Virus record (IMG/VR): IMGVR_UViG_3300031788_000021
Span: 1 to 55,782 of that record
Origin: a virus
Lineage: Duplodnaviria > Caudoviricetes
Strand: one strand, 5' to 3'
DNA: 55,782 nt
Shown: piece after piece, positions 7,559 to 42,297 of the stretch
Layout: every line of letters begins with the position of its first letter
Position numbering within the stretch: the stretch's first letter is position 1
Position numbers and translations under genes: made by a program
Notes under the pieces: generated by a model
What the model saw: only the letters and a program-made list of their open reading frames with translations
Database searches by the model: none
Told to the model about the DNA's origin: nothing

Positions 7559-7567
7559 GGATCGATC

Positions 7568-10500: not shown

Positions 10501-13500
10501 CATGCTGAATGCCGAGGATCAGCTTAACCTAAATTTCAAGGGTGAGGGCACGGTTGAACAGTGGTCAGCGGCAACGAACATGGTTATGTCCGTTGGAGAA
10601 AAAGATGGGGTGGTCGTGGAGGGCCCTGGGTTCGGAGACGTATTCTACAGAAAAGAATTTGAGGAGTCGGGCCAGACTCTTCGAGACCAAGTAACCGGCA
10701 GAGATCGATCCGCTTCGTTTAAGTCCAAGTGGTTCGAGCGCCGGGCCGACATCGAGACCCGGATTCCGATCCTGATAAAGCAGTTCTTCCCCGACGCCGA
10801 TCCGAAGCGGGCCGAGGCCCGCATCCGCGAACTCGCGGCCATCGACCCCACCGGGAAGCAGGGCAAGTACTTGACCTGGCTCCTGAAGAACGAGGTCGAT
10901 CCCGGGACCGGGACCGCCGAGGACCTGCGCGACCTCCTCGCCGTCTACGACAAGGCCAAGTCCAAGGCCAAGTTCCCGGCTCAGTACCGGGACATCAACA
11001 GGATTCTCCCCCAGGACCTGAAGAAGATCGTGGACGAGCACGGGGCGGTTTTGTCCCAGCGCGAACTCGAACTCGCGGGTCAGAAGGTCGTCCGCGACGA
11101 TCACGACTGGAAGATCACGGAGATCACGAGCCCGGCCTCGGCCTCGGCGCTGCTCAAGGGCCGGGACTGGTGCGTCAAGGACCCCAGGTTCTCGGAGCAA
11201 TACCTGGCCGACGGGCCCCTCTACCTCGTCGAGGACAAGTCCGATGGCGAGGATTACCTGATCCACCCCGGACGCGGGGAGGTCAAGGACGAGGAGAACA
11301 ATACCCCGGTCTTGCAGGCTCCGAGGCTCAAGCTGAGCCTAGGTGACGACCCGCACGTGGGCCGCGCGATCGAGCATATGGAGGTCGACGTCGAGGACAT
11401 CCTGCGCGGTATGGGCGACGGCGACTACGAGGCCTCGGACATACCGACGAACGAACTGGACACCGCGCTCGGCCTCTGCATGGAAGAATACGAGTCATAT
11501 GGATACCTCATCTGGAATGTCGTTAGCGAGATGAAGGAGCGCGACATCTCAAGTCTGATCTCGCAGTATATGTGGGCGCGCGGCACCGCTCCAGGGCAGA
11601 AACGTAAAGGGGAACCGAATCAAGCCCAAGAGGACCTGATCCAGGCTCTGCCCATTGAAGAATTCAGCGAGGCCGTCCTGGCCTCGGGCAACGCCAAGCT
11701 CATGGCGGAATTCGCGGTCAAAATCCTGAACAGCCGCTGGCCCCAGGCCGAGCCCAAGATTATGGCCAACGAAGACGCCCGGATAGCGTACACGGACAGG
11801 TTCCCAGAGGAAGAGGCCCTGGTCCCCATGTACCGGCAGCCTCCTCCGGGGGCGCCGAAGCCGGAGCCGACGGAACCCGCAGCCCGCGAGACCGAGGAAC
11901 AGACAGAGGAGTTGCCCTTGGTCGACGCCCCGAAGCCTGGGCCCGGCGAGCCCGGGCACGTGTGGGAGCGGTCGATGCAGGTGCTCAAGGACGACCTGGA
12001 GCAGGGTCAGACCGACCCCGAGAGATACGAGACCAAGCGCCGCCAGATCATGTTCAGGCCCTGGAAGCTGCGGATGAAGGACTACGTCGACCCCGCTTCC
12101 CTGAGCCGGGAGAAGCTGGAGAACACCGAGCCCGAGGCCCTGGAGGAGTACCTGAAGCAGAACAAGGACGACCTCGCGCCCTGGTACAAGAACCTCCCCT
12201 ACGGGTCCAAGTCCGAGTTCACGGCCAGGCTCTTCGGGCGCTGGCTCCGCCGCGCCGCCGCCGACGAGCCCGAGGACGCCCCGGAGTTGACGACCGAGCA
12301 GAAGGTCCAGGCCCTGCTCTACGAGATCGCGCGCGACAACGAGGTCGCGGGCTGGATTCCCGACCCGGACGAACTGATCCGCGAGGTCACGAACTTCCTA
12401 GCCAATGAGGCTGGGGTCGACTACGATCAGGTTGACCGCAAGTGGGTCGAGGGCATGGTCGCCAAACTGGAGTACCCCGGTTGGCGCGCCTACCCCGACC
12501 CCAAGGCCGACCTGCCGCCCGGGATCAAGCTCAACTCCTTCCGAGACCGTTGGCTCCGTCGCGCCAGTGTCACTCCTGAAGGCAAGTGCCCCGCGTGCCA
12601 CAAGGCTCCCGGGCCCGGACGCTGCGAGCAGTGCACTGCCGAGAACAGGTTCCCGCACAATAGCGATGGTCGGATCGAGGTTGTCGAAGATGAGGGTATG
12701 GGCACTGTCAAGGCCATAGTCTGCGACTGGTGCGGGAAGAACTTAGCCTACTTCGACAAGGATACCCCGGACAGGGAGTGCGTTGGCTACTGCACTGAGT
12801 GCAATGATAACCCAGAGGTCCAGGCTGCCTGTGATGCGCTCCTCGCCGGACTCGGTATGGAGATGACTCCGGAGGGTCTCATGCAGGGAGAGCCCGTGGA
12901 GGACACGAGGATGATGGTGTCCGACGTCCCTTCCATGTCATCGGCGGATAAAAACAATGCCCTTAACAAACTCTTGGACCAGCATGAGAAGGCGGACCCC
13001 GAGACGAAGAAGATGCTGGAAGTGAAGATGCGGGAGTTGATGGGGAGTCGCTCTTGCTGGCTCCGCCGGTCCGCTCGGGCCAAGGCCCTGGTCCTCGACC
13101 CCCAGGTCTCGGTGGATCAGGAATTGATGGACCAGTACCTGGCCGTGGTCAAGAAGATGATCGATCATCCGGAGTCGGCGCAGGTCATCGAGAGTCAGAG
13201 GGTGGACCTCCACAACCGCCTGCGCGAGGACGCGCGGGTGCGGTTGCTGCGCAGGACCAGGGCCGAGGACACGGACCCGGGGTGGGACGACGACGTCTTC
13301 TTCCCCGTGGTGGAGAAGTTCGTGGAGGGCGTGCTCGGCTCTGAGGACTTCAACCGCTTCCTACAGGTATGGGATACGGCGAGCGAGCTGCGCGAGACCC
13401 GTCGCGCCTCCGACGCTTCGGTGCCCACCCCCTCCTCCAACCCCGATCACGATATAGCGCTCTACAACCTCCAGGACTCCGAGATTGAGCCGCTGCCCAA

Positions 13501-16500
13501 GCAGATTTGGGACGGGTACGAGCAGGCCAACTACCTCGGGATCGCGCTTGAGTGCTCCGGCGACATCTTCCGCGAACTCGTGGGCTGGAACGTCTGCGAG
13601 GGCTACGTCGGGGAGAAGACGCGGCGGATCAGGGTCTACTGGGACCGGCTGTTCCGACCGATAGAGCCCGAGGCTGAGGCCCTCTGCAAGCAGCTGGTCG
13701 CGCTGTGGTCGGGGATGGACTTGAACGGGAAGAGCCCGAGGCTGCTGGCGGTTCGGGCCCTGAACGTCGCGCTCGCGGCCCACGACAAGGCCGGGGCTGA
13801 AGCGGCGCTGAGTCAGGTCGAGGCCGGGAAGAAGAAGGCCTACTTCCGTAATCGCTGGCTCCGGTGCTTGGCCAAGGTATCTGATAATATCGGGGACGGG
13901 CTCGAATGGAGGCCCTCGAAAAAATGGCCCCCCAAGCCAGGTGACAGATACTTCTTCGAGTACCACTGCGAGGAGAGCGAGGGGTCGGCTGACGCTGAGT
14001 TGTGGCACCGCACACACCAGCCAGTTGAGGTCCTGGCAGTAGACGAGCCCAGTACCCCCGAGGGTGAGGCAGACGGAATCTTTGGCGCCTACACGATCAA
14101 GTTCCTGGATGGTTTTGAGGGATGCGCTGTCGGGGACGAACTCCTTGACTCCCCTGAACAATACGTCCGGCCCGATTATCGATCATCCCGCCGCGCCTCC
14201 TCGTCCAAGCGCAAGAAGTCCAAGAAGGGCACCGAGACCTTCAATGGCTTGGAGATCGCGATCGAGTTCTACCCCGGAGACCAGAAGACCTGCGACAGCG
14301 GCGACGTCGTGGACTATGATGACTTCTACGGCGAGGTCAAGGGCACGCAGACGATAGCCGACGGCGAGCCCGTCGACGTCTACCTGGCCGAGGACGCCCA
14401 CGGCAACGACGATCGCCCGGTCTTCGTCATCCACCAGCTGAAGAAGGACAAGTCCTACGACGAGGACAAGGTCATGCTCGGCTTCGTTGATGAGGCTGCG
14501 GCCATGAAGTGCTACGAGACCTCGGGTCCGCCCTGGGGCTTCGGGAGCCTCGATACCATGACCTGGGACCAGTTCCTCAACGGCTACCTCAAGAGTCACC
14601 AGTCCGCAGAGGACATGGGCGCCAAGTCCATGCCCGAGATCAAGGCCAGGTGGATGGCGCGCCGCGCCAGCAACAACGAGCAGAAACTGCTCAGGGAACT
14701 CGTCTGCACCGTGATCGGCTCCGACTCCATGACGGTCAACGAAGCCGTGCTCCCGGCGGGAACCGTCGTCGGCGTGCAGCCCCAGAGCAACGACCACACC
14801 ATCTTCTTCTACAGCCCACTCTACTCTCGGATGATCGAGCACGGAAAGACGTGGCGCAGCAACCAGTATGCCGCAAGCGTCGAGGATTTCCGCGCGGCCA
14901 CGGACATCGGGTACGGCGAGGGCACGGGCTACGAGCATGGCCCCGAGTGCTTCTGCGACGAGTGCATGGCGAAGGACGACCTCTTCACCCATCGCTGCCC
15001 GAGCTGCGGCAGCCGGGAGTGCCCAGGGGACGGCGACACCATCGACTGCCGCAAGCCCGGGACGATGACCCCGGAGGACGTCCCGGTGGAGACCCGCGAC
15101 AGCCTGCTCGACCGCTTCAACCGTGGTGAGATCGACGAGAAGGAGCTGCGCCGCCGCATGAAGCAGATTTCCATCCTTGTTCGGTGGATGCGGCGGCGCG
15201 CCAATGGCGAAACCTGGCGCTGCACTAGCTGCGATTTTGAGACTAATTCAGACGGATGGGCACAAGAGCACGCGGAGGAAACTGGTCACAGTATAGTTAG
15301 TCAGGGCAGGAAAGAGGAGACCCAACAAGATCATCTGGCGGGCCAGATATTATTTGCAGTCGAGCGCGACCTATCCCGTAACGGTCCCATGAAAGAGAGC
15401 GTCCTCAAGGCGGAGATGATGCGCCCCTGGGATGGTGTCGATAAAGAATTTTTTGATCTAGTTTTCAATAAGGCTCTGGCGATCCTTAATAAGTCTGGGA
15501 AGATTGAATTTAATCCATCGACCGACTCCTGGCAGATCAAGGGGGAGGTCCCGATCGCGAGTCTCCCTGAGTCCCCATCTGAGGTCCCGACTTTTAAGGG
15601 GCGTCAGCGGGAGATCGTGATCGACAAGCTGCTCGACCGCTGGAGCAAGGAACCCGGCGCACGCCCGCAGATCGAAGAGCAGTTGAGATCGTTGCGGGCG
15701 TTTAAGGCCTTATTCATGATGCGGCGCCGGGCCGTCGCCGACTACGAACTCCGGGTTGAACTCTGGTGCGGTCACAACGAGAATCTGCCCGTGGCGCGCG
15801 AGCGCTACCGTAAGGCCAAGGCCGTGGCTGACCAGTTTGGAGTTAGGTTCTGGTCCGAGGAGCACGATGAGGACAGGGACAACGTCTACGCCGACGGCTA
15901 CATCTACCCGACGACCAGGAATATCTTGGACGTCCTGTCCGCCTTGGATGCGGTTGGGGTCGAGTACGACAATGTCGATCTCCCGCAGGAACTTGAAGGG
16001 TCGACGATATACCGGGCGGTACGGGGCGCGATGCCCCGGAGTGTCGACGTCAACATCGGTACGATTCCAGCACGGATGGCGTCCTCCCGCGATCGGTGGA
16101 TGCGGCGCCGCGCTTCCCCCCTGGACGACCCCTCCAAGGACGTCAACGTCGACGGCTACATGCTGCGCCCCGAGGAGATGTCCGAGCCCTACTGGATCAA
16201 CGCCTGGATCAGCCCCAGTGGGAAGTTCTGCCCTATGGTCGGCATCAACCACGAGGACTTCATCGTCGAGCGCACAATCAGCGAGTTGATCGCCGAGGGC
16301 TGGATCAGGTTCGTGGCCGCAGAGTCCGGGACCGCGATCATCGACACGATCGCGGAGCCGACGTCGGCGCAGATGCCGGTGGTCGAGGCCCTGTTCTTCA
16401 TGTCCCCGGTCAAGACCCTAGAGATGGGGGTCGGCGATGACGAGGACTGGGGCTCGTTCTCGACCGTGTCCAAGATCACGGAGAACGATTTGAATGGCGG

Positions 16501-18685
16501 GTCACTGGCTGATGAAATCCACCGCGTGTTTCAGGATCAGGGCCAGAGGTTCACGGACCTGGGCAGGGACTGGTCGAAGCCGGAGGCTTCGTTCCGTGGC
16601 CGCTGGATCGCGGCCAAGAAGAAGTCCCGCCGCGAGCGCCAGGAGGCCAAGAACCCGGACCTCAAGCGCGAGAGCGACCTCATCCGCGAGAACAAGGAGA
16701 AGCCCGAGGCCAAGGCCCCCGAGAAGCGGCCCCAGATCGAGCAGCAGATCAAGTCCCTGGGCGCGCTGCGGGCGCTGTGGCGCGTTCGCGTCGCCGCCCG
16801 TAAGGACTGGAGCGCGTCCTTCCTCTTCGACCCAGTGGAGAATCCCGTCCCCTTCCCCAAGCCCGGCCAGAAGTCGGGGCTCTGGCGCGCCGGGGTCTGG
16901 AACGAGGGTGAGGACGACCTGGACCAGCTCTGGAAGCTGACCGTGGACAACGACTCCAAGTATTACGAGGCTGCGAAGCGCTCTCTCCCTGAATTATTCG
17001 GGAAGAATGACGGGTTCCTTGAGGGGATGCCGCTGCCGGTCAGGAACTACCCCAGGGCCGTGGCCTTCCTCAAGCGCATCTTCCCCCAAGCGTGCGAGGA
17101 GCACATCTACCCGACGTGGGGCAAGGCCGAGCCCGAGCCCGGCCACGAGGGAGACCCTTTCTATCAGGGCAGCAACCAGTGGAAGGATCAGGCGAAGGAC
17201 GTAATCGGGATCATCAAGGGCCTCTACGGCGAGGAGCAGGGCGCGGTGGAGCTGGAGAAGTTTTTGGGTCGCCTCAAGCCCGGCGAGCGTGAGGACTTCC
17301 TGGAGGAGGCCGCCGAGGACCCGCTTGCGGGCATGATCCGGGGCTTCCAGGATATCATCGACAAGCAGAGGGGCGTGGCCCCCAAGGCCAAGCCCAGCCC
17401 CAAGTCCGAGCTATTCGAGGAGCACGTTAAGGAGATGCCGATGCTGGACGAGCAGGAGCGCCAGGAGAGAATAGACGCGTTGCTGGATCAGCTTCCACAA
17501 ACAACCAGTGATGAGGAGAAGCGCCAGATCGAGCAACGCATCCGTTCCCTTCGGGCGTCGCTAAAGTCCGCGTGGCTGCGGAGCGCGGCCCGCAAGAAGA
17601 AGGTCCCGAAGCAGGAGCCCGTAGTCGACGATTCCCCGGAACCTACCGAGCCAGAAGAGGACGATATCATCATCAGCAAGTCGCGGCGCGGGTACTCCGC
17701 GCGGCAGAGCGGTAAAGAAGTCGCCAGCGCCGATAAGTACGATACCCTGCTCTGGCGCGTGAAGGAGTACATGGACAAGGCCAAGTTCTGGCCCAACGTC
17801 TGGGACCAGGGTGAGCGCGGAAACTGCAACCTCATCACGTCAACGGTCCATTCCTGGAAGCCGCCGGTGCCCCCTCCTTACGGGATCGAGGCCATGACCC
17901 TGGCCAAGAACATCTTCGCGGAGTTGTCTCCGGAAGAACTCCAGGGCGCGATGCAGGCCTACAATTCTTATCCCAATGGTTACCAGGGCGCGATGAGGCG
18001 CCTCTCTGATTGGGCCAAGAGCAACACCGGGGGCATGGAGCCGGACGTCCCCGAGTTCACCGACTCCTCTTTTTGGGAGGGCGTCGGCATCCAGGTCGTG
18101 CGCATGGTCGAGGAGGAGCAGAAGCGGGCTGAGGAGAAGAAGATCAAGAACCAGACCCCGAGTGCACCGACCGAGCGCGGACCCGATGACGTCCCGGTCA
18201 TGGACCCGGCCATGAACCAGAAGACCATCGATCGCCTCCTGGACGAGTACGTGGGGGCCGACCCCGAGAAGCGTGAGCAGATCGAGAATCGCCTGCGCAG
18301 CCTCAGGATGGGGTTCAGGTCCCTGTGGTTCCGCCGCGCCCACTGCGGCGCCTGCCACGAGATTCAGTTCGCGGCCCTGCACACGCTCGCGGACATCGCC
18401 GCCGAGCACCCGGACCTGGTGAGTAAGGACCTGATCGGCAAGCTCAGCGAGATGACGTCGGGTATGCACATCCAGGAGTTCGCCGACGAGCTGGTGGACG
18501 TCGCCCTCAAGATCGAGGGCACCGAGGGGCTGGAGGACAAGGTCAAGGAGCTGCGGAACAAGGCCAAGGTCCTGACCATGATCGAGAACGGGATCGACGA
18601 CGGCGACATCGAGGTCATCGACGAGCCCAAGGAAGGATCAACCAGATTCAAGTGGCTCAAGAGAGCCGCCAAGGAGGCCGCATGA
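7568..18685 (+). CDS. giant modular polyvalent polyprotein, 3705 aa; putative internal virion cargo
   Basis: uninterrupted ORF; about 18 W-centred RRA linkers; InPase domain, PcfJ-like module, Zn fingers, three paralogous GWIxPxG domains. Confidence 0.9.
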   Translation: MADLFGRWRARLALGGDPGGQAAPLPSATNNPDGLAEPESPSAWSGYGDIGWIGPSGNYYHINYLTEHMVWLRSQGIKKPDGWVRVVSAPGVSELGLDVKGEGEPNANQWATMEESVRECGEDAEVWVEYPSRFAKFVAGDFTDSGKTLKDFCSGAVKSDKGLGILERLAAPSFEDGLTAATRELVVQVLMENGDQMLQGALYDKVAADLVRVWSSTGRPPISFESAKIYAQSAVDMLFEVHRIDREGEPGTEGMVYLQSDLQMLADQIYGMIYWNKDPMTLEQITAAMKDSVRRGRTPQAYDNQQIDGAINSALNYLIDDEHRVKVTEHGFVAADAPKITVDEAQKGEFQPKPGSTPVQDVLRKTKFVDPEKEKNRLLDEFSQGKITREVLDQKMRQLQASFRDRWLRRAENPFQSLDDLKTMKQMQQAGWGLFVSGGAYFVIEPGQSQPRRVSVKELRSIMQSFRSAPSGPAGDDYATGYALGKAYTDGWSMSDIFNLDPMETLEMAGHMFAVCEKGEPGARLMPAEGEGGKVVKQWLKPHPIGVSYSQAKDKKSFERGFRAGWAAGETKEDKAYRKHQKQPKTKKPAPAPQPKEKVNPEDPFCAGFNPTKEYVDVDEGVEEGQPGYRKPVSYCICGHAPSSHEGWTPEWKPGMPLGGCQSCGTIGDEEGDDGFSEASLKSRWFRRASSNSNLGKWFKITGELRVWARVPKDRDEKVPTIVLPVGTEVMVMLKAEMQLGHLMAMWISWPNQKVEGVDPGDGEGVVRCEDFYRAAVPIDNSANYQGLVVKSIEWKNSDKTLGYARWGTKRVSGGVAFAIDAGGSVVFLESLDDPESVIADFQPEELRAPLTEAIQAETLPKGERPGQMRTTDVPVVDPEREKNRLLDEFSTGKITREDLDRKIRMLEASFRARWFRRAVKKMDRSPSVFVFGDNGWIMPDGKFYALMEEEVHEDFLVKNKLKPEGLVRVSTLAIQNIMLNAEDQLNLNFKGEGTVEQWSAATNMVMSVGEKDGVVVEGPGFGDVFYRKEFEESGQTLRDQVTGRDRSASFKSKWFERRADIETRIPILIKQFFPDADPKRAEARIRELAAIDPTGKQGKYLTWLLKNEVDPGTGTAEDLRDLLAVYDKAKSKAKFPAQYRDINRILPQDLKKIVDEHGAVLSQRELELAGQKVVRDDHDWKITEITSPASASALLKGRDWCVKDPRFSEQYLADGPLYLVEDKSDGEDYLIHPGRGEVKDEENNTPVLQAPRLKLSLGDDPHVGRAIEHMEVDVEDILRGMGDGDYEASDIPTNELDTALGLCMEEYESYGYLIWNVVSEMKERDISSLISQYMWARGTAPGQKRKGEPNQAQEDLIQALPIEEFSEAVLASGNAKLMAEFAVKILNSRWPQAEPKIMANEDARIAYTDRFPEEEALVPMYRQPPPGAPKPEPTEPAARETEEQTEELPLVDAPKPGPGEPGHVWERSMQVLKDDLEQGQTDPERYETKRRQIMFRPWKLRMKDYVDPASLSREKLENTEPEALEEYLKQNKDDLAPWYKNLPYGSKSEFTARLFGRWLRRAAADEPEDAPELTTEQKVQALLYEIARDNEVAGWIPDPDELIREVTNFLANEAGVDYDQVDRKWVEGMVAKLEYPGWRAYPDPKADLPPGIKLNSFRDRWLRRASVTPEGKCPACHKAPGPGRCEQCTAENRFPHNSDGRIEVVEDEGMGTVKAIVCDWCGKNLAYFDKDTPDRECVGYCTECNDNPEVQAACDALLAGLGMEMTPEGLMQGEPVEDTRMMVSDVPSMSSADKNNALNKLLDQHEKADPETKKMLEVKMRELMGSRSCWLRRSARAKALVLDPQVSVDQELMDQYLAVVKKMIDHPESAQVIESQRVDLHNRLREDARVRLLRRTRAEDTDPGWDDDVFFPVVEKFVEGVLGSEDFNRFLQVWDTASELRETRRASDASVPTPSSNPDHDIALYNLQDSEIEPLPKQIWDGYEQANYLGIALECSGDIFRELVGWNVCEGYVGEKTRRIRVYWDRLFRPIEPEAEALCKQLVALWSGMDLNGKSPRLLAVRALNVALAAHDKAGAEAALSQVEAGKKKAYFRNRWLRCLAKVSDNIGDGLEWRPSKKWPPKPGDRYFFEYHCEESEGSADAELWHRTHQPVEVLAVDEPSTPEGEADGIFGAYTIKFLDGFEGCAVGDELLDSPEQYVRPDYRSSRRASSSKRKKSKKGTETFNGLEIAIEFYPGDQKTCDSGDVVDYDDFYGEVKGTQTIADGEPVDVYLAEDAHGNDDRPVFVIHQLKKDKSYDEDKVMLGFVDEAAAMKCYETSGPPWGFGSLDTMTWDQFLNGYLKSHQSAEDMGAKSMPEIKARWMARRASNNEQKLLRELVCTVIGSDSMTVNEAVLPAGTVVGVQPQSNDHTIFFYSPLYSRMIEHGKTWRSNQYAASVEDFRAATDIGYGEGTGYEHGPECFCDECMAKDDLFTHRCPSCGSRECPGDGDTIDCRKPGTMTPEDVPVETRDSLLDRFNRGEIDEKELRRRMKQISILVRWMRRRANGETWRCTSCDFETNSDGWAQEHAEETGHSIVSQGRKEETQQDHLAGQILFAVERDLSRNGPMKESVLKAEMMRPWDGVDKEFFDLVFNKALAILNKSGKIEFNPSTDSWQIKGEVPIASLPESPSEVPTFKGRQREIVIDKLLDRWSKEPGARPQIEEQLRSLRAFKALFMMRRRAVADYELRVELWCGHNENLPVARERYRKAKAVADQFGVRFWSEEHDEDRDNVYADGYIYPTTRNILDVLSALDAVGVEYDNVDLPQELEGSTIYRAVRGAMPRSVDVNIGTIPARMASSRDRWMRRRASPLDDPSKDVNVDGYMLRPEEMSEPYWINAWISPSGKFCPMVGINHEDFIVERTISELIAEGWIRFVAAESGTAIIDTIAEPTSAQMPVVEALFFMSPVKTLEMGVGDDEDWGSFSTVSKITENDLNGGSLADEIHRVFQDQGQRFTDLGRDWSKPEASFRGRWIAAKKKSRRERQEAKNPDLKRESDLIRENKEKPEAKAPEKRPQIEQQIKSLGALRALWRVRVAARKDWSASFLFDPVENPVPFPKPGQKSGLWRAGVWNEGEDDLDQLWKLTVDNDSKYYEAAKRSLPELFGKNDGFLEGMPLPVRNYPRAVAFLKRIFPQACEEHIYPTWGKAEPEPGHEGDPFYQGSNQWKDQAKDVIGIIKGLYGEEQGAVELEKFLGRLKPGEREDFLEEAAEDPLAGMIRGFQDIIDKQRGVAPKAKPSPKSELFEEHVKEMPMLDEQERQERIDALLDQLPQTTSDEEKRQIEQRIRSLRASLKSAWLRSAARKKKVPKQEPVVDDSPEPTEPEEDDIIISKSRRGYSARQSGKEVASADKYDTLLWRVKEYMDKAKFWPNVWDQGERGNCNLITSTVHSWKPPVPPPYGIEAMTLAKNIFAELSPEELQGAMQAYNSYPNGYQGAMRRLSDWAKSNTGGMEPDVPEFTDSSFWEGVGIQVVRMVEEEQKRAEEKKIKNQTPSAPTERGPDDVPVMDPAMNQKTIDRLLDEYVGADPEKREQIENRLRSLRMGFRSLWFRRAHCGACHEIQFAALHTLADIAAEHPDLVSKDLIGKLSEMTSGMHIQEFADELVDVALKIEGTEGLEDKVKELRNKAKVLTMIENGIDDGDIEVIDEPKEGSTRFKWLKRAAKEAA
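14228..14593 (+). other. inorganic pyrophosphatase (InPase) domain within the polyprotein
   Basis: GLEIAIE ... YGEVKGT..ADGEPVDVYL ... VFVIHQ ... YDEDKVMLGF ... MTWDQF, the pattern of polyvalent-protein InPase domains. Confidence 0.85.
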
Positions 18686-34600: not shown

Positions 34601-34759
34601 ACGCACGACTGGTGCACGCTCTGGAACACGGCGGTGGAGAACCTGGTGATGCTGCCGAGCGGGGCCGTCGTCCCCAAGAGCATGGCGGGGATGTCCTCCG
34701 AGCCCCACGGCGAGGGCGGACCCCGGCAGTTCGGTCGGGACATGGATCAGAGCGGGTGA
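31619..34759 (+). CDS. large modular putative internal head protein
   Basis: AGGAG RBS before ATG 31619; many [KR]xA motifs; [16 protein letters not shown] domain; Zn ribbons. Confidence 0.85.
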
Positions 34760-36177
34760 AGATGGACGAGAACTACCGGACGCGGATCAGCCACCAGCCC
34801 GACTGGCTCATAGACGGGCTGGTGAAGTCCGCCGTCTTCGCCGACGAGTCCAGGGACGAACCCATGTTCAAGACCGAGGTCTCCTGGAACCAGCTGAAGA
34901 CCCAGGTCCAGAGCCTCCTGGTCCGCAGCGGCCTCAACCTCACCAAGCGCGAAATCGGGGTCGCCACCTACTGGCTCACGGAGAGGATCGCGGGCTACGT
35001 AAGCGAGCAAGACACGAAGGAGACGTTGACTGAGACCATGCAGAACCTGGTCTCGCAGTACATCGTCGATAAGTCCCTCCAGCGCACCACCGGCGTGAGC
35101 GAGCGCGGTCCCATCCACACCCGGGAGTGGTATGACAAGAACTACGGCCAGGCTCCGGGCATGGACAAGGACGCGGCGGCGGACGACGACGATTCCGGGC
35201 CCGAACTCTCCGACGACTCCGAGCCCCAGGTCTTCGTCGGCATCGACGGCGACAACATCGGGAGCCTGGTCGAGGAGACGCTGCTCACCGACGACCCCGA
35301 GGCCGCATCCGCGATCTCGCGCTCGATCCACGACGCCCACGACGAGATCGGGGACGTGGTCAAGGAGCGCGGCGGTCGCCTGATCTTCGATGGCGGCGAC
35401 AACATGCTCTTCACCCTGCCCCTGGACATTGACACGATCGAGGGAATCCGTAGAATATATAGGGACAAGACGGGGCACAGCGCCACGGTTGGGATCGGCA
35501 AGCGGCCCATCGAGGCCCACTTCGCCCTGGTCGTGGGCAAGAACACGGGCAAGGACAAGATCGTTGTCTTCGGTCAGGAAGTGCTGGACGAGTACGAGGC
35601 CATCCACGAAGAGCAAGAGGAGGCGGCGCCCCTGTTCCAGAAGCTGAAGTACCGGGCCAGTGTCAGCGCCGGAGCCAGCGGGGTCGAGGGCGTGGTCGAC
35701 CGCGCGTTCTGGGACCTCGGCGTCGCCCGCGTCCTCCGCGCGGTCCTGGGCAAGCTCGGTCTCCCGGTCGACGACGAGTCCGTGTACGACACCTTCATAC
35801 GCCTGGTCCACGCCCACGGCCTGGACAGCGTCGTCTCCATCCACCGCTTCTTCACCATGGGCTTCGACGCCCTGGAGAACGCCGTCCGCACCGTGCGCGG
35901 CGGTCCCGAGCCCACGGTCACTGCCGGGGTCAAGTTCATGGCTCTGGCCGCCGTCCCGACCTCGGAGCCCCAGCACTTCCCGGGGCAGTCGGTGCCCCCC
36001 TTCGGCCAGACCCGGAAGTCGCCGCACCCGAGGAAGGACTGGCTCACTATCGAGGATTACAACAAGGACCAGGTCGACGTCTCGAAGACGGACGTGAGCT
36101 ACGTCGGCGGAAACGTGCCCAAGGACAGCCAGATGATGTGCGGCGGAGACCAGGGCGACCCGATATACGTTCCATAG
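34756..36177 (+). CDS. modular protein with an mCpol (minimal CRISPR polymerase, GGDEF-like) domain
   Basis: [11 protein letters not shown] ... [13 protein letters not shown] ... SATVGIG ... [14 protein letters not shown] at ~35230-35575; GTGA coupling. Confidence 0.8.
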
Positions 36178-36191
36178 AGAGGAGAACCAAG

Positions 36192-38831
36192 ATGATCACC
36201 CCCTACCAAAACCCCGAAGGCCGCGACGACAAGGCCAGCAGCTTCTGGCACACCCTCGCCAACAAGCTGGGGCTCCGGGCTCCGAACCTCAAGCAGGCCT
36301 CCGCCGACGACCTCCGGGTCCAGCGCCTCTCCGACGGTATCCAGACTCAGGGCAGGGCCCCGATCCGGCAGGGCATGGTCAAGGTCGCGGGACTGACCAA
36401 GGTCTCGGCGCCGCAGCACCTGGCCGAGTCCGTGTTCGACCGCATCATCGACATGCACCGCCGCGCCGAGGCCCAGCTGAGCCAGGCCGAGCGCGTCAAG
36501 GCCGTGGACTTCCTCAGCCGGATCGCGGACCAGGCCGAGGGCGTCAAGGGCTCGGTCGGCGCCTGCGGAGGCGACCAGAAGGTCGCGGACCTCTGCGGCG
36601 AGATCACGGCCAAGGCCGACGCCGTGATCGGTGCCGTGACGCAGCTGAGGGATAAGGCCTCGGACATGTCCGTGGCCCAGGCCGAGGCCATCTCCAACGC
36701 CTTCCTCCTGATCAACGACGCCGCCAACTACCTCGGGAAGAAGGGGGCGGTCGAGCCCGCCTCGTCCCCGACCATGCCCGAGATCGAACTCATGGACGGC
36801 GGCCTCCCGGAGATGCCGCCCTCGGAGGAGACCCCGAGCCCGGCGTCGGCGATCGCGGGGCACATCCCGGCCATGGTCCGCAAGGCCATGGACGAGGCCT
36901 ACGACGACATGCGCTGCGTCCACACGAAGATGCTCCTGATCGAGTCCATGCTCAACGAGATCATCGCCGACCTCAACGTCAACACGATGATGACCCCGGG
37001 GATGCCCGGGGACGGGATGCCCCCGACCACGGAGCTTCCGGGTCCGGACACCCCCGAGGCCATGCGCGAGGAGTCGGAGGAGCAGGCGGCGGCGAAGGGC
37101 GCCGAGGCCGGTCTGGAGGGAGTGGTAGTGGTGGCCAGAACCGATGTCCACCCTATCGAGGAAATGAACGAAGAGTACCATGGTCAGCAAGACGTCTCGG
37201 ACCACAGAAGTCCGCCGTGGGAGAGGAAGCGGAGAAAGAATCTCCAGGAGACCAAGAAGACCGCCGCCTCCGGCGACCCCGGCGACTCCGAGCCCGGCAA
37301 CTCGATCTACAAGGACATCAACAAGTGCCGGGACTGCGTCTGGTTCGAGTCCGACGTCACGCACGAGACCTACCGCGACAAGTGCAGGGGCTGCGAGCAC
37401 GCCAAGCTCGGCGGCATCGCCAACCACTGGTGGCCCAAGGCCCAGCAGATGGTGATCTGGGCGCCCCAGTACGAGGGCGAGTCCGAGCACGTCCGGCTCT
37501 CGGTCAGAGACACGCTGACCCTGCGCCAGGCCCAGCCGGACCAAGCGCAGTCAGTCGCGAGGGAGATCGTGGCCGCCGCCGACCACCACGCGGTGGACCT
37601 CGGCGAGGTCATGGTCGACACGTTCCGCAACCCGCTGATCGCCAGCCAGATGGGGACGCTGGCGCGCGGGATCGTCGCCGAGGTCGCGAGCCTGACCGGC
37701 GTGACCATGGCCCGGGACGCCAAGGACGGCAACCTGATCATCGCGTATCCCGTGATCGAGCAGGAGGCCAAGGGCGAGAAGGCGAGGATCAGGGAACTCC
37801 GGACCCAACTCGAAGGCGAGAAGGACCCGGTGAAGATCAAGCAACTCCACGACGCGATCGAGGCCCTGCACGACCGGATCAGCAAGGACAAGGAGCGCAA
37901 GGAGCAGCGGCGCAAGGACCGGGCGGAGCGGAAGGAGAAGCAGCAGGCGGAGTTCGACAAGCAGCACGCGAACATCCCGGCGAAGACCGCATCGAAGTGG
38001 AAGGAGCGTGGGAACTGCTCTCATTGCGGGCATCCCATGTCTATGCACGGGGATACCACTTCGGCGTGCATGGACTGCGTCGAGTCCGGTGGTCCGTGCG
38101 CCAATGGGATTCCAAGTGGTTCCGAGGCGGCGGCGTCCCTGACCGGCAGCCTCTGCCTCGCCGACGCCCTCCAGTGGCCGTCGGACAGCCCCGAGCTGGG
38201 GGCTGGCGAGGCGTTCTCGGTCTGCCATAAGTGCGGCCAGGAGCACGCCCTGGACACCCCTTGCACTCCCGAGACCCCGGAGGAGCGCGTCAAGCGCATC
38301 GTCGGCCCCGGGCCGGGGAAGCAGGTGGCGACCATGGACGTGCCCCCCGGAGGGGCGGACGTCGCGGTCACCAGCGTCAACGGGATGCCCCAGGCGAGCG
38401 CTGGCGTCATCGGAACCCTCACCTCCAGGGGGTCGCTTCGTCTAGGGGAGATCGAGCAAGAGGCGTCTCCGGCCTGGGTCAAGGTCATCGCCATTATCGC
38501 CAATATGATGGGGACCAATTGCCAGGAAGTGGTTAATAATCCTGATCAGGGGAAGCAGGCTTACGAGTGGGTCGATCAGCATCGGGAAGCCGTGGACAAG
38601 ATCAGGCAGGAGCTGCTGGATGACCCCGATATCAGCCCCCAGGAAATAGACACGGACATGGTCGCCGCCTTCAAGTATTTAAAGGGCAAGGATAGGCCCC
38701 AGGACAAGCACCATCCCGCGAAGACATCCCCGGTGAAAGCCCCGACTCAGAAGGTGCAGGCGCCAGCGCCAACGCAGCCGCAGACTCAGGTTAGTGTCGC
38801 TGGAACCCTCACCTCCAGGGGGTCGCTTTGA
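36192..38831 (+). CDS. large modular putative internal head protein (zero-frame product, 879 aa)
   Basis: GAGGAG RBS; KTAAS/KTAS/RQA motifs; Cys clusters; ends at CTT-TGA-C. Confidence 0.85.
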   Translation: MITPYQNPEGRDDKASSFWHTLANKLGLRAPNLKQASADDLRVQRLSDGIQTQGRAPIRQGMVKVAGLTKVSAPQHLAESVFDRIIDMHRRAEAQLSQAERVKAVDFLSRIADQAEGVKGSVGACGGDQKVADLCGEITAKADAVIGAVTQLRDKASDMSVAQAEAISNAFLLINDAANYLGKKGAVEPASSPTMPEIELMDGGLPEMPPSEETPSPASAIAGHIPAMVRKAMDEAYDDMRCVHTKMLLIESMLNEIIADLNVNTMMTPGMPGDGMPPTTELPGPDTPEAMREESEEQAAAKGAEAGLEGVVVVARTDVHPIEEMNEEYHGQQDVSDHRSPPWERKRRKNLQETKKTAASGDPGDSEPGNSIYKDINKCRDCVWFESDVTHETYRDKCRGCEHAKLGGIANHWWPKAQQMVIWAPQYEGESEHVRLSVRDTLTLRQAQPDQAQSVAREIVAAADHHAVDLGEVMVDTFRNPLIASQMGTLARGIVAEVASLTGVTMARDAKDGNLIIAYPVIEQEAKGEKARIRELRTQLEGEKDPVKIKQLHDAIEALHDRISKDKERKEQRRKDRAERKEKQQAEFDKQHANIPAKTASKWKERGNCSHCGHPMSMHGDTTSACMDCVESGGPCANGIPSGSEAAASLTGSLCLADALQWPSDSPELGAGEAFSVCHKCGQEHALDTPCTPETPEERVKRIVGPGPGKQVATMDVPPGGADVAVTSVNGMPQASAGVIGTLTSRGSLRLGEIEQEASPAWVKVIAIIANMMGTNCQEVVNNPDQGKQAYEWVDQHREAVDKIRQELLDDPDISPQEIDTDMVAAFKYLKGKDRPQDKHHPAKTSPVKAPTQKVQAPAPTQPQTQVSVAGTLTSRGSL

Positions 38832-38832
38832 C
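38817..38832 (+). promoter_or_regulatory. prfB(RF2)-type +1 ribosomal frameshift cassette
   Basis: AGGGGG-TCG-CTT-TGA-C, in frame with the upstream ORF; the +1 frame stays open to 39246. Confidence 0.65.
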
Positions 38833-39246
38833 CACGTCGCCGATGTCCGGGGCCCGGACAGCGGCATCGGCGGCCAGGGTCCGGAGAACCTCAACCTCGT
38901 CGAGGTCGACCAGCCTCTTGATCAGAAAAATCCTGGCCCTAAACTCCGCCCTCGTCAGCGCGTGCGCTTCCGCCCTCCGCAGGGCCTCGAAGGTCAAGAG
39001 CCCGAGTTCTTCGAGGGCCCGGCGGGCTACCGCAACGTCGAGAAGGGGTACGGGACCGAGAATCAGCCGGACACCGGTTCCCCGTCCTCGATCATGCTCG
39101 CGACCTGGAAGAGACGTCGAACGCTGGTAGAGGAGACGATGCCTAACGCGGTGAAGGAGGGGGACCCCCAGGAAGAGGGACAGACCACGACGGGGAACCC
39201 CGGAGACGCGATACAGCAGAGTTTTTACGACATGCAGGCGAGGTAA
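38830..39246 (+). CDS. +1-frame C-terminal extension of the 36192 ORF (138 aa)
   Basis: coding-like codon usage, no convincing start or RBS of its own, fills the gap to the portal gene. Confidence 0.65.
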   Translation, partial: DHVADVRGPDSGIGGQGPENLNLVEVDQPLDQKNPGPKLRPRQRVRFRPPQGLEGQEPEFFEGPAGYRNVEKGYGTENQPDTGSPSSIMLATWKRRRTLVEETMPNAVKEGDPQEEGQTTTGNPGDAIQQSFYDMQAR

Positions 39247-39255
39247 AATATCTCT

Positions 39256-42200
39256 ATGGCTGACGCCAACGACAAGACCGCGAGCGTGCCCGCCCCTGAA
39301 GGGTCGGGTCTCGTCACGTCCAACTTGGACGCCGAGTTCAAGATGATCAAGAACGCGGTGAGCCCGGGGCTGACCGGCAGCGCCCTCGTGGACATTCCCC
39401 GCGCGCGCATGAAGAAGATGGCGTCGCAGTTCGGGAACATGAGGCCGGGGCTGCACCGGCAGGCGCCGTCGTTCTACCACCCTCTGTTCGAGGCGCTGAA
39501 CCTACAGCTTCCGACGAAATCCTTCTATCCCGGGACGCTGATCACCATGGCGGACGGGACACAGAAGATTATCGAGAATTTCATGCCCGGTGACGAGGTT
39601 GTTTCTCACGACGGGTCGATAGAGGTCGTGGAGTTCACCGAGCACCATCCTGCGACCGGATCATCCGTCGAGATCAAGGCCCAGGGCATGGACCTGCCTC
39701 TGCGCGTGACCTCTGGGCACAAGGTCCTGGCTCTGCGTGCCGAGGACGTGGGGTGCGATAAGGAAGATAAGCCCGGGTTCTGCATTTTCGGGAAGAATAC
39801 CCACTGCGAGCGGTACACGAATGGGCCCAGGGGCAGCGTGGATCGCTGCAAGTCGAGGAGGAACGAAATCCCTGCCCCTCGACCGATCGAGGCATTCAAG
39901 CTCAGGAAGGGCGACTACGTGTTCGTCCCGATCGTGGGCGGCGTGGAGAAAATGAGTCCGTACAGGGAAGAGCGCTATAACCCGGCGACGAACTCGTTCA
40001 TCCACGTCAGGGACGTCGAGGTGGACGAGAAGATGATGAGGCTCTTGGGCTACTACGCCTCGGAGGGCTCCGTAGGCAAGCGCGCTGACGGGGAAATCCA
40101 CTCGACCACTTTCAGCCTGAATATAAATGAGAAGGACACCCTGGCAGCCGAGATCGTGGCCTTGATCAAGGATGTGTTCGGGAAGAAGGCTTGGAGTAAC
40201 CCGGGGCAGAACAATACCTACATTGTGGTGGTCAACGGCAAGAAGATAGGGAAGTGGTTCATCCGCCACTGTGGCAAACTGGCCAAGGAGAAGGTCCTGT
40301 CCCGGGAAGTTATGTTCGCGGACCCCGGTCTCCAAGTTCACTTCCTGGCTGCGTACGCCAACGGAGACGGGTCCCAGATTACCGGGGGCTCCAGCGCGGG
40401 TAAGGTCGTGATCACCACCGCGTCGGAGAACATGGCCAACCAGCTTGCTATCCTGGCTAGGCGTTGCGGCATGGCCCCGACCAAGCGCTACGAGTACAGG
40501 AAGGACGGGTTCTCGGGCGAGGGACACCCGACGTGGAATTGGCAGGTCGGAATCGCCAATGGCTTCGTGGCCCCTTTCGTGGGGATAAGCAAATTCGTCC
40601 AGCACAGAAAATCATTTTTCATGAACAAGATGGTGATCCATAAGAAGTGGATCGCGCATAAGATCATCTCTGTCAAGGAAATCGATTATCGAGGAGAGGT
40701 CTGGAATATCGGAGTCCGGAAGCCGGTCAGAATCCTCGTTCCGTACAAGGAAAAACACCTTTTGCTCCATGGTCGCTTCGTCGGAGGGAAGCCGTTTGAG
40801 CACCATATCGAAATCACTGGGGTGAGCACGGCGGGCAATCATACAGTGATCGCCAATGGGTATGCTTGCTGTCAAAGCCGCGAAATCAATCAGTGGGCGC
40901 GCCATTTCATGAAAACAGATGGTTACGTTGGGACCACTATTTCTATGCACGCCGACCTCCCGATGACCGGAGCCCACCTGGTCTGCGACGACGAGAAGGT
41001 GAAACTCTTCTTCGAGATTCTGTTCTTCGACGTGATCAAGGGCCTCAACCTTATCGGCGACATTAGTTTGGAATACTGGAAATTAGGAAATGTTTTTCCG
41101 TTTGGCGAGTGGGACGACGACCGTGGCATCTGGACGGGCTTCAACCTGCTGAACCCCGACTTCGTCGAGGTCGAGAAGGCCAGCCTCGTCGGTGAGCCGA
41201 TCCTCAAGCTGGACCCGGACGACAACCTCAAGCGGATCGTCGCCAGCCGCCAGCCCAAGGAACTGTACGAGGCGTTGGCCAAGATCGAGAACGGGCAGTT
41301 GGTCAACCTCGTGGCCCGTGGCGAGAAGATTCCGCTCAACAAGTTCCGCGTCAGCCACCTCGCGTACAAGATGAGCCCGTACGAGAGCGTGGGCACCCCG
41401 ATCATGTTCCGCGCCTTCAAGCCCCTGATCTTCAAGGACTTGGTCCGCCGGGTCCAGCAGGCGGTGTACGAGCGCCACATCACCCCGATCAAGCTCGTGA
41501 AGGTCGGCACCGACACCATGCCCGCGAACCCGCAGGCCGTGACTCAGGTGCGCGAGGCCTTCGACGAATTGAGCCAGGACCTGAGCGCCTGGTTCGTCTA
41601 CCACCACGCGATCTCGGTCGAGTACGTGTCCAGCGCCGGGAAGATTCACCCCTTCGACCAGGAGTCGAAGTGGATCAGGGAAGAGATCATGGCCGCTCTC
41701 ATGGGCTCCGAGGCCATGATCGGCGGCACCGGCCCGAACTTCGCCGCTGGTTCGATCGGCCTCCAGGTCCTGATCAACCGGTACATGCGGGTCCAAGAGA
41801 TGCTGGCGCGCTGGATCAAGGATACGATCTTCCGGCCCGTGGCCATAGCCCAGGACTTCCGGCGCCGCAACGAACTCGGGGAGGACGAGTACATCGTCCC
41901 CGACATCGAGTTCGAGTTCATGAAGCTCAAGGACGACGTCCAGATGAAGGGTCTGATGAAGGAGATGGCCAAGACCGGCCTGATCTCGAAGCAAACCTTC
42001 TACACGTACTTGGGCCTGGACTACCGCAAGGAGAAGCGCCAGATCGAGCGGGAGCGGGCCGAGGAGAAGAAGGCCGCGATGCAGGGGATGAAGCCCGGAG
42101 GCAAGCCCGGGGCGGGCGGCGCCGGGGCCCCTCCGCCCATGGGCGGTGGTGGCGGCGGGGACAGCGGCGGCGGTGAGGGACCGGTCCCCGGCGAGGGCGA

Positions 42201-42297
42201 GACTGCGGCCACGGTCCCGACCCCGGGCACGCCCATGCCTGCGGCGGAGACCATACCTGGCGCGGGCGCCGGTCAGGGACTCCCGGAGGCGGCATGA
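39256..42297 (+). CDS. portal protein (intein-containing)
   Basis: spliced sequence LPTK|SREINQWARHF ... EYWKLGNVFPF ... LLNPDFVEV ... GTPIMFRAF; Gly/Pro tail; position before gpF, protease and capsid. Confidence 0.85.
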   Translation: MADANDKTASVPAPEGSGLVTSNLDAEFKMIKNAVSPGLTGSALVDIPRARMKKMASQFGNMRPGLHRQAPSFYHPLFEALNLQLPTKSFYPGTLITMADGTQKIIENFMPGDEVVSHDGSIEVVEFTEHHPATGSSVEIKAQGMDLPLRVTSGHKVLALRAEDVGCDKEDKPGFCIFGKNTHCERYTNGPRGSVDRCKSRRNEIPAPRPIEAFKLRKGDYVFVPIVGGVEKMSPYREERYNPATNSFIHVRDVEVDEKMMRLLGYYASEGSVGKRADGEIHSTTFSLNINEKDTLAAEIVALIKDVFGKKAWSNPGQNNTYIVVVNGKKIGKWFIRHCGKLAKEKVLSREVMFADPGLQVHFLAAYANGDGSQITGGSSAGKVVITTASENMANQLAILARRCGMAPTKRYEYRKDGFSGEGHPTWNWQVGIANGFVAPFVGISKFVQHRKSFFMNKMVIHKKWIAHKIISVKEIDYRGEVWNIGVRKPVRILVPYKEKHLLLHGRFVGGKPFEHHIEITGVSTAGNHTVIANGYACCQSREINQWARHFMKTDGYVGTTISMHADLPMTGAHLVCDDEKVKLFFEILFFDVIKGLNLIGDISLEYWKLGNVFPFGEWDDDRGIWTGFNLLNPDFVEVEKASLVGEPILKLDPDDNLKRIVASRQPKELYEALAKIENGQLVNLVARGEKIPLNKFRVSHLAYKMSPYESVGTPIMFRAFKPLIFKDLVRRVQQAVYERHITPIKLVKVGTDTMPANPQAVTQVREAFDELSQDLSAWFVYHHAISVEYVSSAGKIHPFDQESKWIREEIMAALMGSEAMIGGTGPNFAAGSIGLQVLINRYMRVQEMLARWIKDTIFRPVAIAQDFRRRNELGEDEYIVPDIEFEFMKLKDDVQMKGLMKEMAKTGLISKQTFYTYLGLDYRKEKRQIERERAEEKKAAMQGMKPGGKPGAGGAGAPPPMGGGGGGDSGGGEGPVPGEGETAATVPTPGTPMPAAETIPGAGAGQGLPEAA
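39520..40875 (+). mobile_element. intein with LAGLIDADG endonuclease (452 aa; Ser1, C-terminal Cys-Gln, Ser+1)
   Basis: SFYPGTLITMADG (block A), VTSGHK (block B), LLGYYASEG and FLAAYANGDG (endonuclease), YRGEVWNIGV (block F), HTVIANGYACCQ|S. Confidence 0.88.

Follow-up and report, generated by a model that had tools for sequence, protein, structure and literature searches.

A candidate prfB-type +1 frameshift site at the end of a head-module gene in phages from peat metagenomes

Here, we describe a candidate programmed +1 frameshift site in a virus (Duplodnaviria; Caudoviricetes) represented by the linear IMG/VR virus record IMGVR_UViG_3300031788_000021. The complete stretch of 55,782 nucleotides (nt), for which the completeness is estimated at 38%, was analysed and is referred to as the window. 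The site is located at the last sense codon of a gene coding for a protein of 879 amino acids (aa) and resembles the site in prfB, the gene for release factor 2 (RF2). Our comparison of related phage sequences argues for a programmed +1 frameshift of the prfB type at this position, with a probability that we put at roughly 0.85. An original prediction, made from the letters of the window, had proposed such a cassette and, as its products, isoforms of 879 and 1017 aa; in agreement with this, CTTTGA, the upstream purine run and both reading frames are kept in all six related loci that include the gene end.

We propose the following mechanism. Ribosomes translating the 879-codon gene would arrive at its end with CUU in the P site and UGA in the A site, and the AGGGGG run located 3 nt upstream would pair with the anti-Shine-Dalgarno tail of the 16S rRNA. 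Slow RF2-dependent termination would then allow the peptidyl-tRNA-Leu to re-pair from CUU to UUU, and decoding would restart in the +1 frame at GAC. The majority of ribosomes would terminate and produce the 879-aa protein, and a minority would add a 138-residue, largely disordered tail, resulting in a protein of 1017 aa. We infer the slippage itself, its efficiency, the link between the product ratio and the RF2 activity of the host, and the function of the tail from sequence comparison.

A prfB-like signal at the end of the 879-aa gene

The window has a GC content of around 64% and carries nearly every gene on the plus strand. The frame-0 open reading frame (ORF) as listed spans 36138-38831, but conservation places the start at the ATG at 36192 (M19), which is common to all 14 aligned relatives introduced below, has gagaggagaaccaag upstream and is preceded by a GAGAGGAG ribosome-binding site. 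According to the codon-usage score, frame 0 is the best frame until about 38700. The 3' end of the gene reads ACC TCC AGG GGG TCG CTT TGA C, and the part from AGG onwards, from which the original prediction started, was read directly at 38817-38832. It consists of a Shine-Dalgarno-like (SD-like) run, a 3-nt spacer, a slippery CTT_T and the TGA stop (Table 1). Reading CTTT in one step would give a single 1017-residue product. The pattern RGGRGGNNNCTTTGA has a single occurrence on both strands of the 55.8-kb window.

A protein search with the 879-aa query returned 19 proteins at E <= 1e-3. The alignment used here consists of the query and 14 proteins; P0004, which is the window's own protein, was left out and P0019-P0022 were read separately. 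The exact C-terminus [GR][GR]SL is found in 12 of the 14 aligned relatives, and among the four distant proteins, three end with LRGLL, LGRSL and LRGSL, and P0020 ends with GQVRG. These protein ends indicate that the stop after the SL residues is the natural end of the 879-aa family and no accident of the window contig.

At the DNA level, we compared seven related loci, L001-L007, a set that overlaps in part with the 14-protein alignment. L007 continues beyond the end of its contig, and at the site L002 does not differ from L004, so that the seven sequences referred to in the following are the window and L001-L006. The gene ends with AGG GGG TCG CTT TGA C in the window and L001, GGG AGG TCT CTT TGA T in L002, L004 and L005, AGG AGG TCT CTT TGA T in L003 and GGG AGG TCA CTT TGA G in L006. 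Thus, RGG RGG TCN CTT TGA is present in 6/6 related loci that include the gene end, CTT and TGA are each found in 7/7 sequences, and a purine run (AGGGGG, GGGAGG or AGGAGG) is located at identical spacing in all of them, even as the residues encoded by this run vary between RG, GR and RR. An in-frame CTTT occurs only once across the whole gene, both in the window and in L002.

The divergence between these sequences is informative with regard to the cause of this conservation. The number of synonymous substitutions per synonymous site (dS) between the main lineages is 1.1-2.9, that is, synonymous sites are saturated, and identical rare codons are therefore not explained by shared ancestry. CTT accounts for only 4-9% of the Leu codons in these genes, and AGG and GGG for 2-8% of the Arg and 15-19% of the Gly codons, respectively (L002-L006). 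In the internal G[ST]L motifs, excluding the duplicated copy and the terminal motifs, Leu is encoded by CTC or CTG in 12 of 12 cases. As the purines are kept while the encoded residues change, and as rare codons are kept as well, the comparison argues that selection acts on the nucleotides of the cassette, as is characteristic of a recoding signal.

A blastn search of 36138-39300 against a phage collection gave no match, scans of genome contigs returned no relative and hence no clue to the host, and further scans of viral contigs yielded no additional contigs. GGAGG-type Shine-Dalgarno (SD) sites are found at normal spacing before many genes of the window, which indicates that the ribosome of the host uses SD pairing. 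No significant RNA fold was detected at 38800-38920 (z -0.09), no Rfam match at 38300-39500 and no tRNA gene in the window. Sites of the prfB type are not known to need a downstream RNA structure, and a run of three T residues is too short for transcriptional slippage.

Only sub-threshold matches were obtained for the 879-aa protein in Pfam and PHROGs, which places it in no known family, and a comparison with the ESM Atlas gave no usable match. The protein contains a conserved Cys-rich motif, KCRDCVWFESD.THETYRDKC. The family as a whole is a mosaic, in which Zn-ribbon-like and other modules come and go among relatives. G-[ST]-L motifs (GTLCLA, RGSLRLG and the terminal GRSL) recur at the module boundaries, and on account of this position they may be cleavage or junction sites.

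Table 1. Coordinates of the frameshift signal and associated features in the window
Feature	Position	Strand	Remarks
Frame-0 head-module gene	36192..38831	+	879 aa + TGA
First 27-nt copy	38412..38438	+	original gene end, inserted module now after it
Inserted C-terminal module, 390 nt	38439..38828	+	ends with second 27-nt copy
SD-like run AGGGGG	38817..38822	+	3 nt before CTT, 6 nt before stop
Spacer, 3 nt, Ser codon TCG	38823..38825	+	TCT or TCA in relatives
Slippery CTT_T	38826..38829	+	Leu codon CTT (38826-38828) and first base of stop
Stop TGA (38829-38831) and next base C (38832)	38829..38832	+	TGA in 7/7 sequences
+1-frame ORF	38830..39246	+	GAC 38830 to TAA 39244-39246; 138 codons + TAA; C-terminal module ending FYDMQAR
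Portal gene with probable intein	39256..42297	+	starts 9 nt after +1 ORF stop, same frame as +1 ORF

Selection on the +1 frame and alternative readings

All loci contain an open +1 frame of 122-148 codons, and in the five loci in which both ends were read, its stop lies 3-9 nt ahead of the portal ATG. Differences between relatives accumulate at its third codon positions: for positions 1, 2 and 3, respectively, we counted 3, 4 and 24 differences between the window and L001, and 1, 1 and 11 between L002 and L003. The same holds for the first 105 nt past the junction, with 1, 1 and 12 differences for the former pair and 0, 0 and 8 for the latter, and the binomial P for the third-position excess ranges from 6e-7 to 2e-4. 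Similarly, 18 of the 22 variant positions that contigs from three other sequencing runs (X6, X8 and X14, see below) show at 38967-39180 are third positions of the +1 frame, according to our recount. The ratio of nonsynonymous to synonymous substitution rates (dN/dS) of the +1 ORF is 0.05-0.28. Over its first 34 codons, the identity in the +1 frame is 1.00 both for the window and L001 and for L002 and L003, with values of 0.59-0.82 and 0.76-0.94, respectively, in the five remaining frames. Among the first 12 codons, Arg alternates between CGG and AGA and Ser between AGC and TCN, and indels in the +1 ORF among relatives are multiples of 3, with the one between the window and L001 measuring 12 nt. 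Taken together, these patterns indicate that purifying selection acts on the +1 ORF, beginning right at the junction. The original prediction had also pointed to a parallel between the fused reading GSL-DHVAD and GSLCLAD earlier in the protein; this carries no weight, as relatives read GRSL-DERRAD over the junction.

Several observations weigh against a programmed frameshift. At the protein level, two relatives deviate from the common C-terminus, P0010 ending with GRSLR and P0017 with GRAL. Where prfB has a conserved C that weakens the stop, the base after TGA varies: the window and L001 carry C, L002-L005 carry T and L006 carries G, so that the C expected to weaken the stop in the original prediction is borne out for the first two sequences and not for the others, and because of these bases the efficiency of frameshifting may be low or lineage-dependent. 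The DNA-level relatives amount to about five lineages, all of them metagenomic, and the case for frameshifting is built on sequence comparison. Finally, possible start codons exist for the tail in some loci, and a second frame is open downstream of the stop; these points are discussed together with the explanations that they favour.

The alternative that survives best, improbable though we consider it, is that the 138-codon ORF forms a small gene of its own, which is translated from a GTG at 38794, from a Met located 13 codons past the junction or from a non-canonical codon by reinitiation after TGA, and that the purine run is a ribosome-binding site or no more than a pair of GR or RG codons. 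With regard to the +1 frame, the original prediction was right that it is open for 138 codons up to the portal gene; its claim that there is no good start has to be qualified, as the GTG at 38794 is present 12 codons ahead of the junction, though conserved in no relative. L005 and L006 likewise possess an ATG or GTG upstream (the candidate starts are ATG 5150 and 5243 in L005 and GTG 3358 and ATG 3445 in L006), and in both loci an ATG 13 codons past the junction has been taken as the start by gene callers, resulting in proteins of 108-122 aa (P0024-P0026 and P0032). Furthermore, other phages carry the tail module in proteins with a start of their own, as seen in L011. However, in L001-L004 (4/7 loci) the +1 frame contains no ATG, GTG or TTG between the point at which it opens and 60 nt past the junction, and in L002 it opens just 50 nt before the stop, so that any entry point must lie within those 50 nt. 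The Met used by the gene callers is replaced by Ile in the window and L001 and by Lys in L002-L004, and nothing SD-like precedes the ATG in L005 or L006. In addition, the 12 codons ahead of this Met are conserved as amino acids through synonymous changes, which a downstream start leaves unexplained, just as a separate gene leaves the invariant rare CTT and the TGA unexplained.

We regard it as clearly less probable that a -1-frame ORF (TTG 38828 to 39130, 100 aa) is a real downstream gene coupled to the stop, with AGGGGG as its ribosome-binding site, and that the +1 frame is open owing to chance composition. An open stretch of about 84-108 codons exists in the -1 frame of 7/7 sequences, and a TTG, or a TTG followed by an ATG, overlaps the TGA 5-8 nt past the purine run, a spacing at which this run could serve as a ribosome-binding site. 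Against this, the identity in the -1 frame is 0.62 between the window and L001 and 0.76 between L002 and L003, as compared with 1.00 in the +1 frame. The substitutions hit third positions of the +1 frame, which are second positions of the -1 frame, and the codon-usage score of the -1 frame is negative throughout.

Even less credible, and in practice refuted by the comparisons given here, is the reading that the gene is really one continuous ORF or a decaying pseudogene, and that its frames are separated by an error of sequencing or assembly, by a recent 1-nt indel or by the scar of a duplication. Indel errors do occur in metagenome assemblies, and an exact 27-nt direct repeat (38412-38438 and 38802-38828) lies right at the site. 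This repeat, including the continuation of its internal copy as AGG GGG TCG CTT CGT, had been noted in the original prediction together with the caveat that the cassette could be a by-product of duplication and an indel. While the repeat is real, the caveat fails, as L001 has an identical cassette and lacks the 390-nt duplicated module. This module is present in the window and in P0005 and absent from L001 (P0006), and its GC content at third codon positions is 0.73 compared to 0.89 for the whole gene. Since P0006, the equivalent of L001, terminates where the window has the first 27-nt copy, we conclude from this comparison that the 390-nt segment is an insertion that re-created the original end, and with it the frameshift cassette, at the new end of the gene. 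The same frame arrangement is found in 6/6 relatives, on five other contigs from two collections, and the dN/dS values given above are not those of a decaying gene. Read support points in the same direction: 18 peat-metagenome runs, five of which may be the source of the window DNA, contain the window stretch (at least half of the sampled words), and contigs of X6, X8 and X14, non-source runs from different coded studies, span the junction with zero inserted or deleted letters, so that the site is covered by three independent assemblies. A continuous in-frame form was absent among the tail matches read or compared (15 of 22, that is, 14 hits read and P0041 compared; see below). The RNA run X19 spans 38626-38798 only, short of the frameshift site, and has no bearing on expression there.

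A minus-strand gene as the reason for the open frame (ORF 38809-39480, open for 223 codons, its C-terminal 80 residues appearing helical) can practically be dismissed. In its favour, the minus-strand frame and the +1 frame have equal codon-usage scores at 38800-38900, and GC by codon position is ambiguous at 38830-38950. Against it, relatives share an identity of 0.65-0.82 in the minus-strand frame as compared with 1.00 in the +1 frame, the substitutions hit first codon positions of the former, neither Pfam nor PHROGs gave a match for the minus-strand ORF, and this ORF contains no start codon short of 39480, which lies within the portal gene.

The tail module

The tail was searched against 1.84 billion representative proteins, giving 22 matches at E <= 1e-3; Pfam and PHROGs contained no match for it. 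Nine of the 22 are short proteins of 72-154 aa, all of which except P0023 begin inside the tail. For at least four of these nine (P0024-P0026 and P0032), gene callers placed the start at a Met that the family does not conserve. In the tail frame, P0023 contains ...GGHFDH..., a sequence that would fit the same cassette, and P0030 (137 aa) holds part of the tail module. P0041 (883 aa) and P0038 (4471 aa) match the tail via 8 and 15 short stretches, respectively; P0041 was rejected, as it turned out to be a repeat protein without relation to the 879-aa family.

In P0027, P0028, P0034, P0035, P0036, P0037, P0039 and P0044 (195-445 aa), the module is found at the C-terminus of proteins with N-terminal parts of their own, and for P0027, P0028 and P0034 these parts show no similarity to the 879-aa protein. 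When P0027 was compared with the L002 transframe product by BLASTP, one high-scoring segment pair across the junction was obtained (E 1e-17). It was not counted as an in-frame fused form, since the part of the match that lies upstream of the junction is limited to VWG and a few residues. As in the window, the homologous module carried in frame by lower-GC phages (P0028, P0034-P0037, P0039, P0044 and L011; E 1e-15 to 5e-5) is always C-terminal and ends with ...F.DMQ.R. It differs in that it is fused to a separate N-terminal region of 170-260 aa with an ordinary start. L011, a lower-GC relative, is particularly instructive in this context: its homologue of the 879-aa gene ends with GTLCLAQVK and a TAG stop and has no cassette, and the tail module follows two genes later with a start of its own, shortly before a portal gene that bears an intein. 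These arrangements indicate that the tail module is a portable C-terminal element, which the clade of the window would supply by frameshifting.

An AlphaFold2 model of the tail, based on an 18-row alignment, had a predicted local distance difference test (pLDDT) score of 55.7 and a predicted template modelling (pTM) score of 0.12, with one helix at 126-137. The tail is thus predicted to be largely disordered, and the lack of a fold in this model fits a disordered docking region. Because the module forms the C-terminus of separate proteins encoded beside the portal gene in other phages, its role is, by analogy, probably that of a docking or assembly module. A modelled complex of the L002 portal and the L002 tail scored 0.00; this value was obtained without controls and has no bearing either way on binding.

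Relation to known frameshift sites

In prfB, the site is described as an SD-like run with the consensus AGGGGG, followed 3 nt downstream by CTTT, TGA and then C (PMC12421855), and the same core elements are given in PMC3711429. The phage site shares with it the SD-like run, which in the window equals the prfB consensus, the 3-nt spacer, CTT_T and TGA at equal spacing, as well as the lack of downstream structure. The C after the stop is shared by the window and L001 only, so that four of the five sequence features hold clade-wide, whereas the base after the stop is C, T or G and hence not conserved. There are further differences. The phage site is located at the end of an 879-codon gene, whereas the E. 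coli prfB site is found around codon 26 (PMC12421855). The phage product has no RF2 or other Pfam domain, which leaves no feedback loop, and the proposed shift would add an optional C-terminal tail, whereas the shift in prfB makes the sole functional product. As there is no homology beyond the 16-nt signal, the phage and prfB sites appear to be convergent.

The closest phage examples are the +1 frameshifts in the tail (tsh) and capsid (cps) genes of the Listeria phages PSA, A118 and A500 (PMC5009743). They likewise affect genes of a structural module, take place at the last sense codon before UGA and lead to a second, C-terminally extended product. However, the genes are unrelated, and the Listeria sites consist of CCC_UGA, with slippage of tRNA-Pro, or of CCC followed by a pseudoknot, in contrast to CUU_UGA with an SD-like run in the window. 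An upstream SD stimulator is not part of the description of the Listeria sites in PMC5009743. When the criteria for PSA-type sites are applied to the window, the P-site codon is CTT, with neither a significant downstream fold nor an Rfam match. A fixed ratio of a short and a C-terminally extended product is also known from -1 frameshifts of the T7/T3 gene 10 and lambda gpG/GT type (PMC5009743, PMC3711429), but these shift by -1 on heptanucleotide slippery sites and thus by another mechanism.

According to the PRFect paper (PMC10274946), prfB accounts for every CUU-stop +1 frameshift site in the RECODE database. A full-text literature search, judged by titles and the openings of abstracts, returned no paper describing the cassette in a phage gene, and supplementary tables of the RECODE type could list cases. 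We lean towards the view that a clade of uncultivated peat phages would have independently evolved the complete RF2 sensor, composed of an SD-like run, a 3-nt spacer and CUU_UGA. Instead of serving autoregulation, this sensor would provide a defined share of a large head-module protein with a disordered assembly module. The stoichiometry of the virion would thereby be tied to the termination capacity of host RF2, and no natural CUU-stop +1 site would have been known outside prfB before this one. Such a second, convergent instance would show that the combination of an SD-like run and CUU_UGA is a portable module and no peculiarity of prfB. If true, it would further provide an independent recoding system with natural variation (C, T or G) after the stop and an example in which the structural stoichiometry of a phage depends on a host termination factor. 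In practice, automated gene calling divides this gene or cuts it short, leaving proteins of 72-154 aa in the databases, and annotation pipelines for phages should therefore look for the cassette.

Neighbouring genes and further observations

For the portal protein, which contains a LAGLIDADG/Hint insert, matches to PF06074 and phrog_16240 were obtained. The downstream genes code for a head protein, a prohead protease (phrog_18299) and a major head protein (phrog_2522, E 5e-82). As portal, protease and major head protein genes are located nearby, the gene with the candidate frameshift site is assigned to the head-morphogenesis module.

The insert in the portal protein measures around 445 aa and is present in the window, in L001 (6645-9578) and in L011 (4413-7112). 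It contains a LAGLIDADG_3 domain (E 4.4e-10) and gives weak Hint matches, and for this reason it is probably an intein. The portal proteins of L002, L003 and L005 have a length of 565-570 aa and lack the insert. The portal start is located in an A-rich stretch, 3-9 nt past the stop of the +1 ORF (window 39235-39258, L002 6565-6584 and L005 5562-5578), and no well-spaced SD sequence precedes it in the window or L002. Based on these two features, translation of the portal gene may be coupled to ribosomes that finish the frameshifted tail.

The gene directly upstream of the 879-aa gene (34612-36177) codes for a protein with a minimal CRISPR polymerase (mCpol) domain (PF18182, E 1.5e-20) and a match to the Cas10 palm2 domain; an mCpol gene adjoining a phage head module is unusual. 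Elsewhere in the window, one frame stays open over 3708 codons at 7559-18685; its coding statistics are good, and it would correspond to a giant phage protein.

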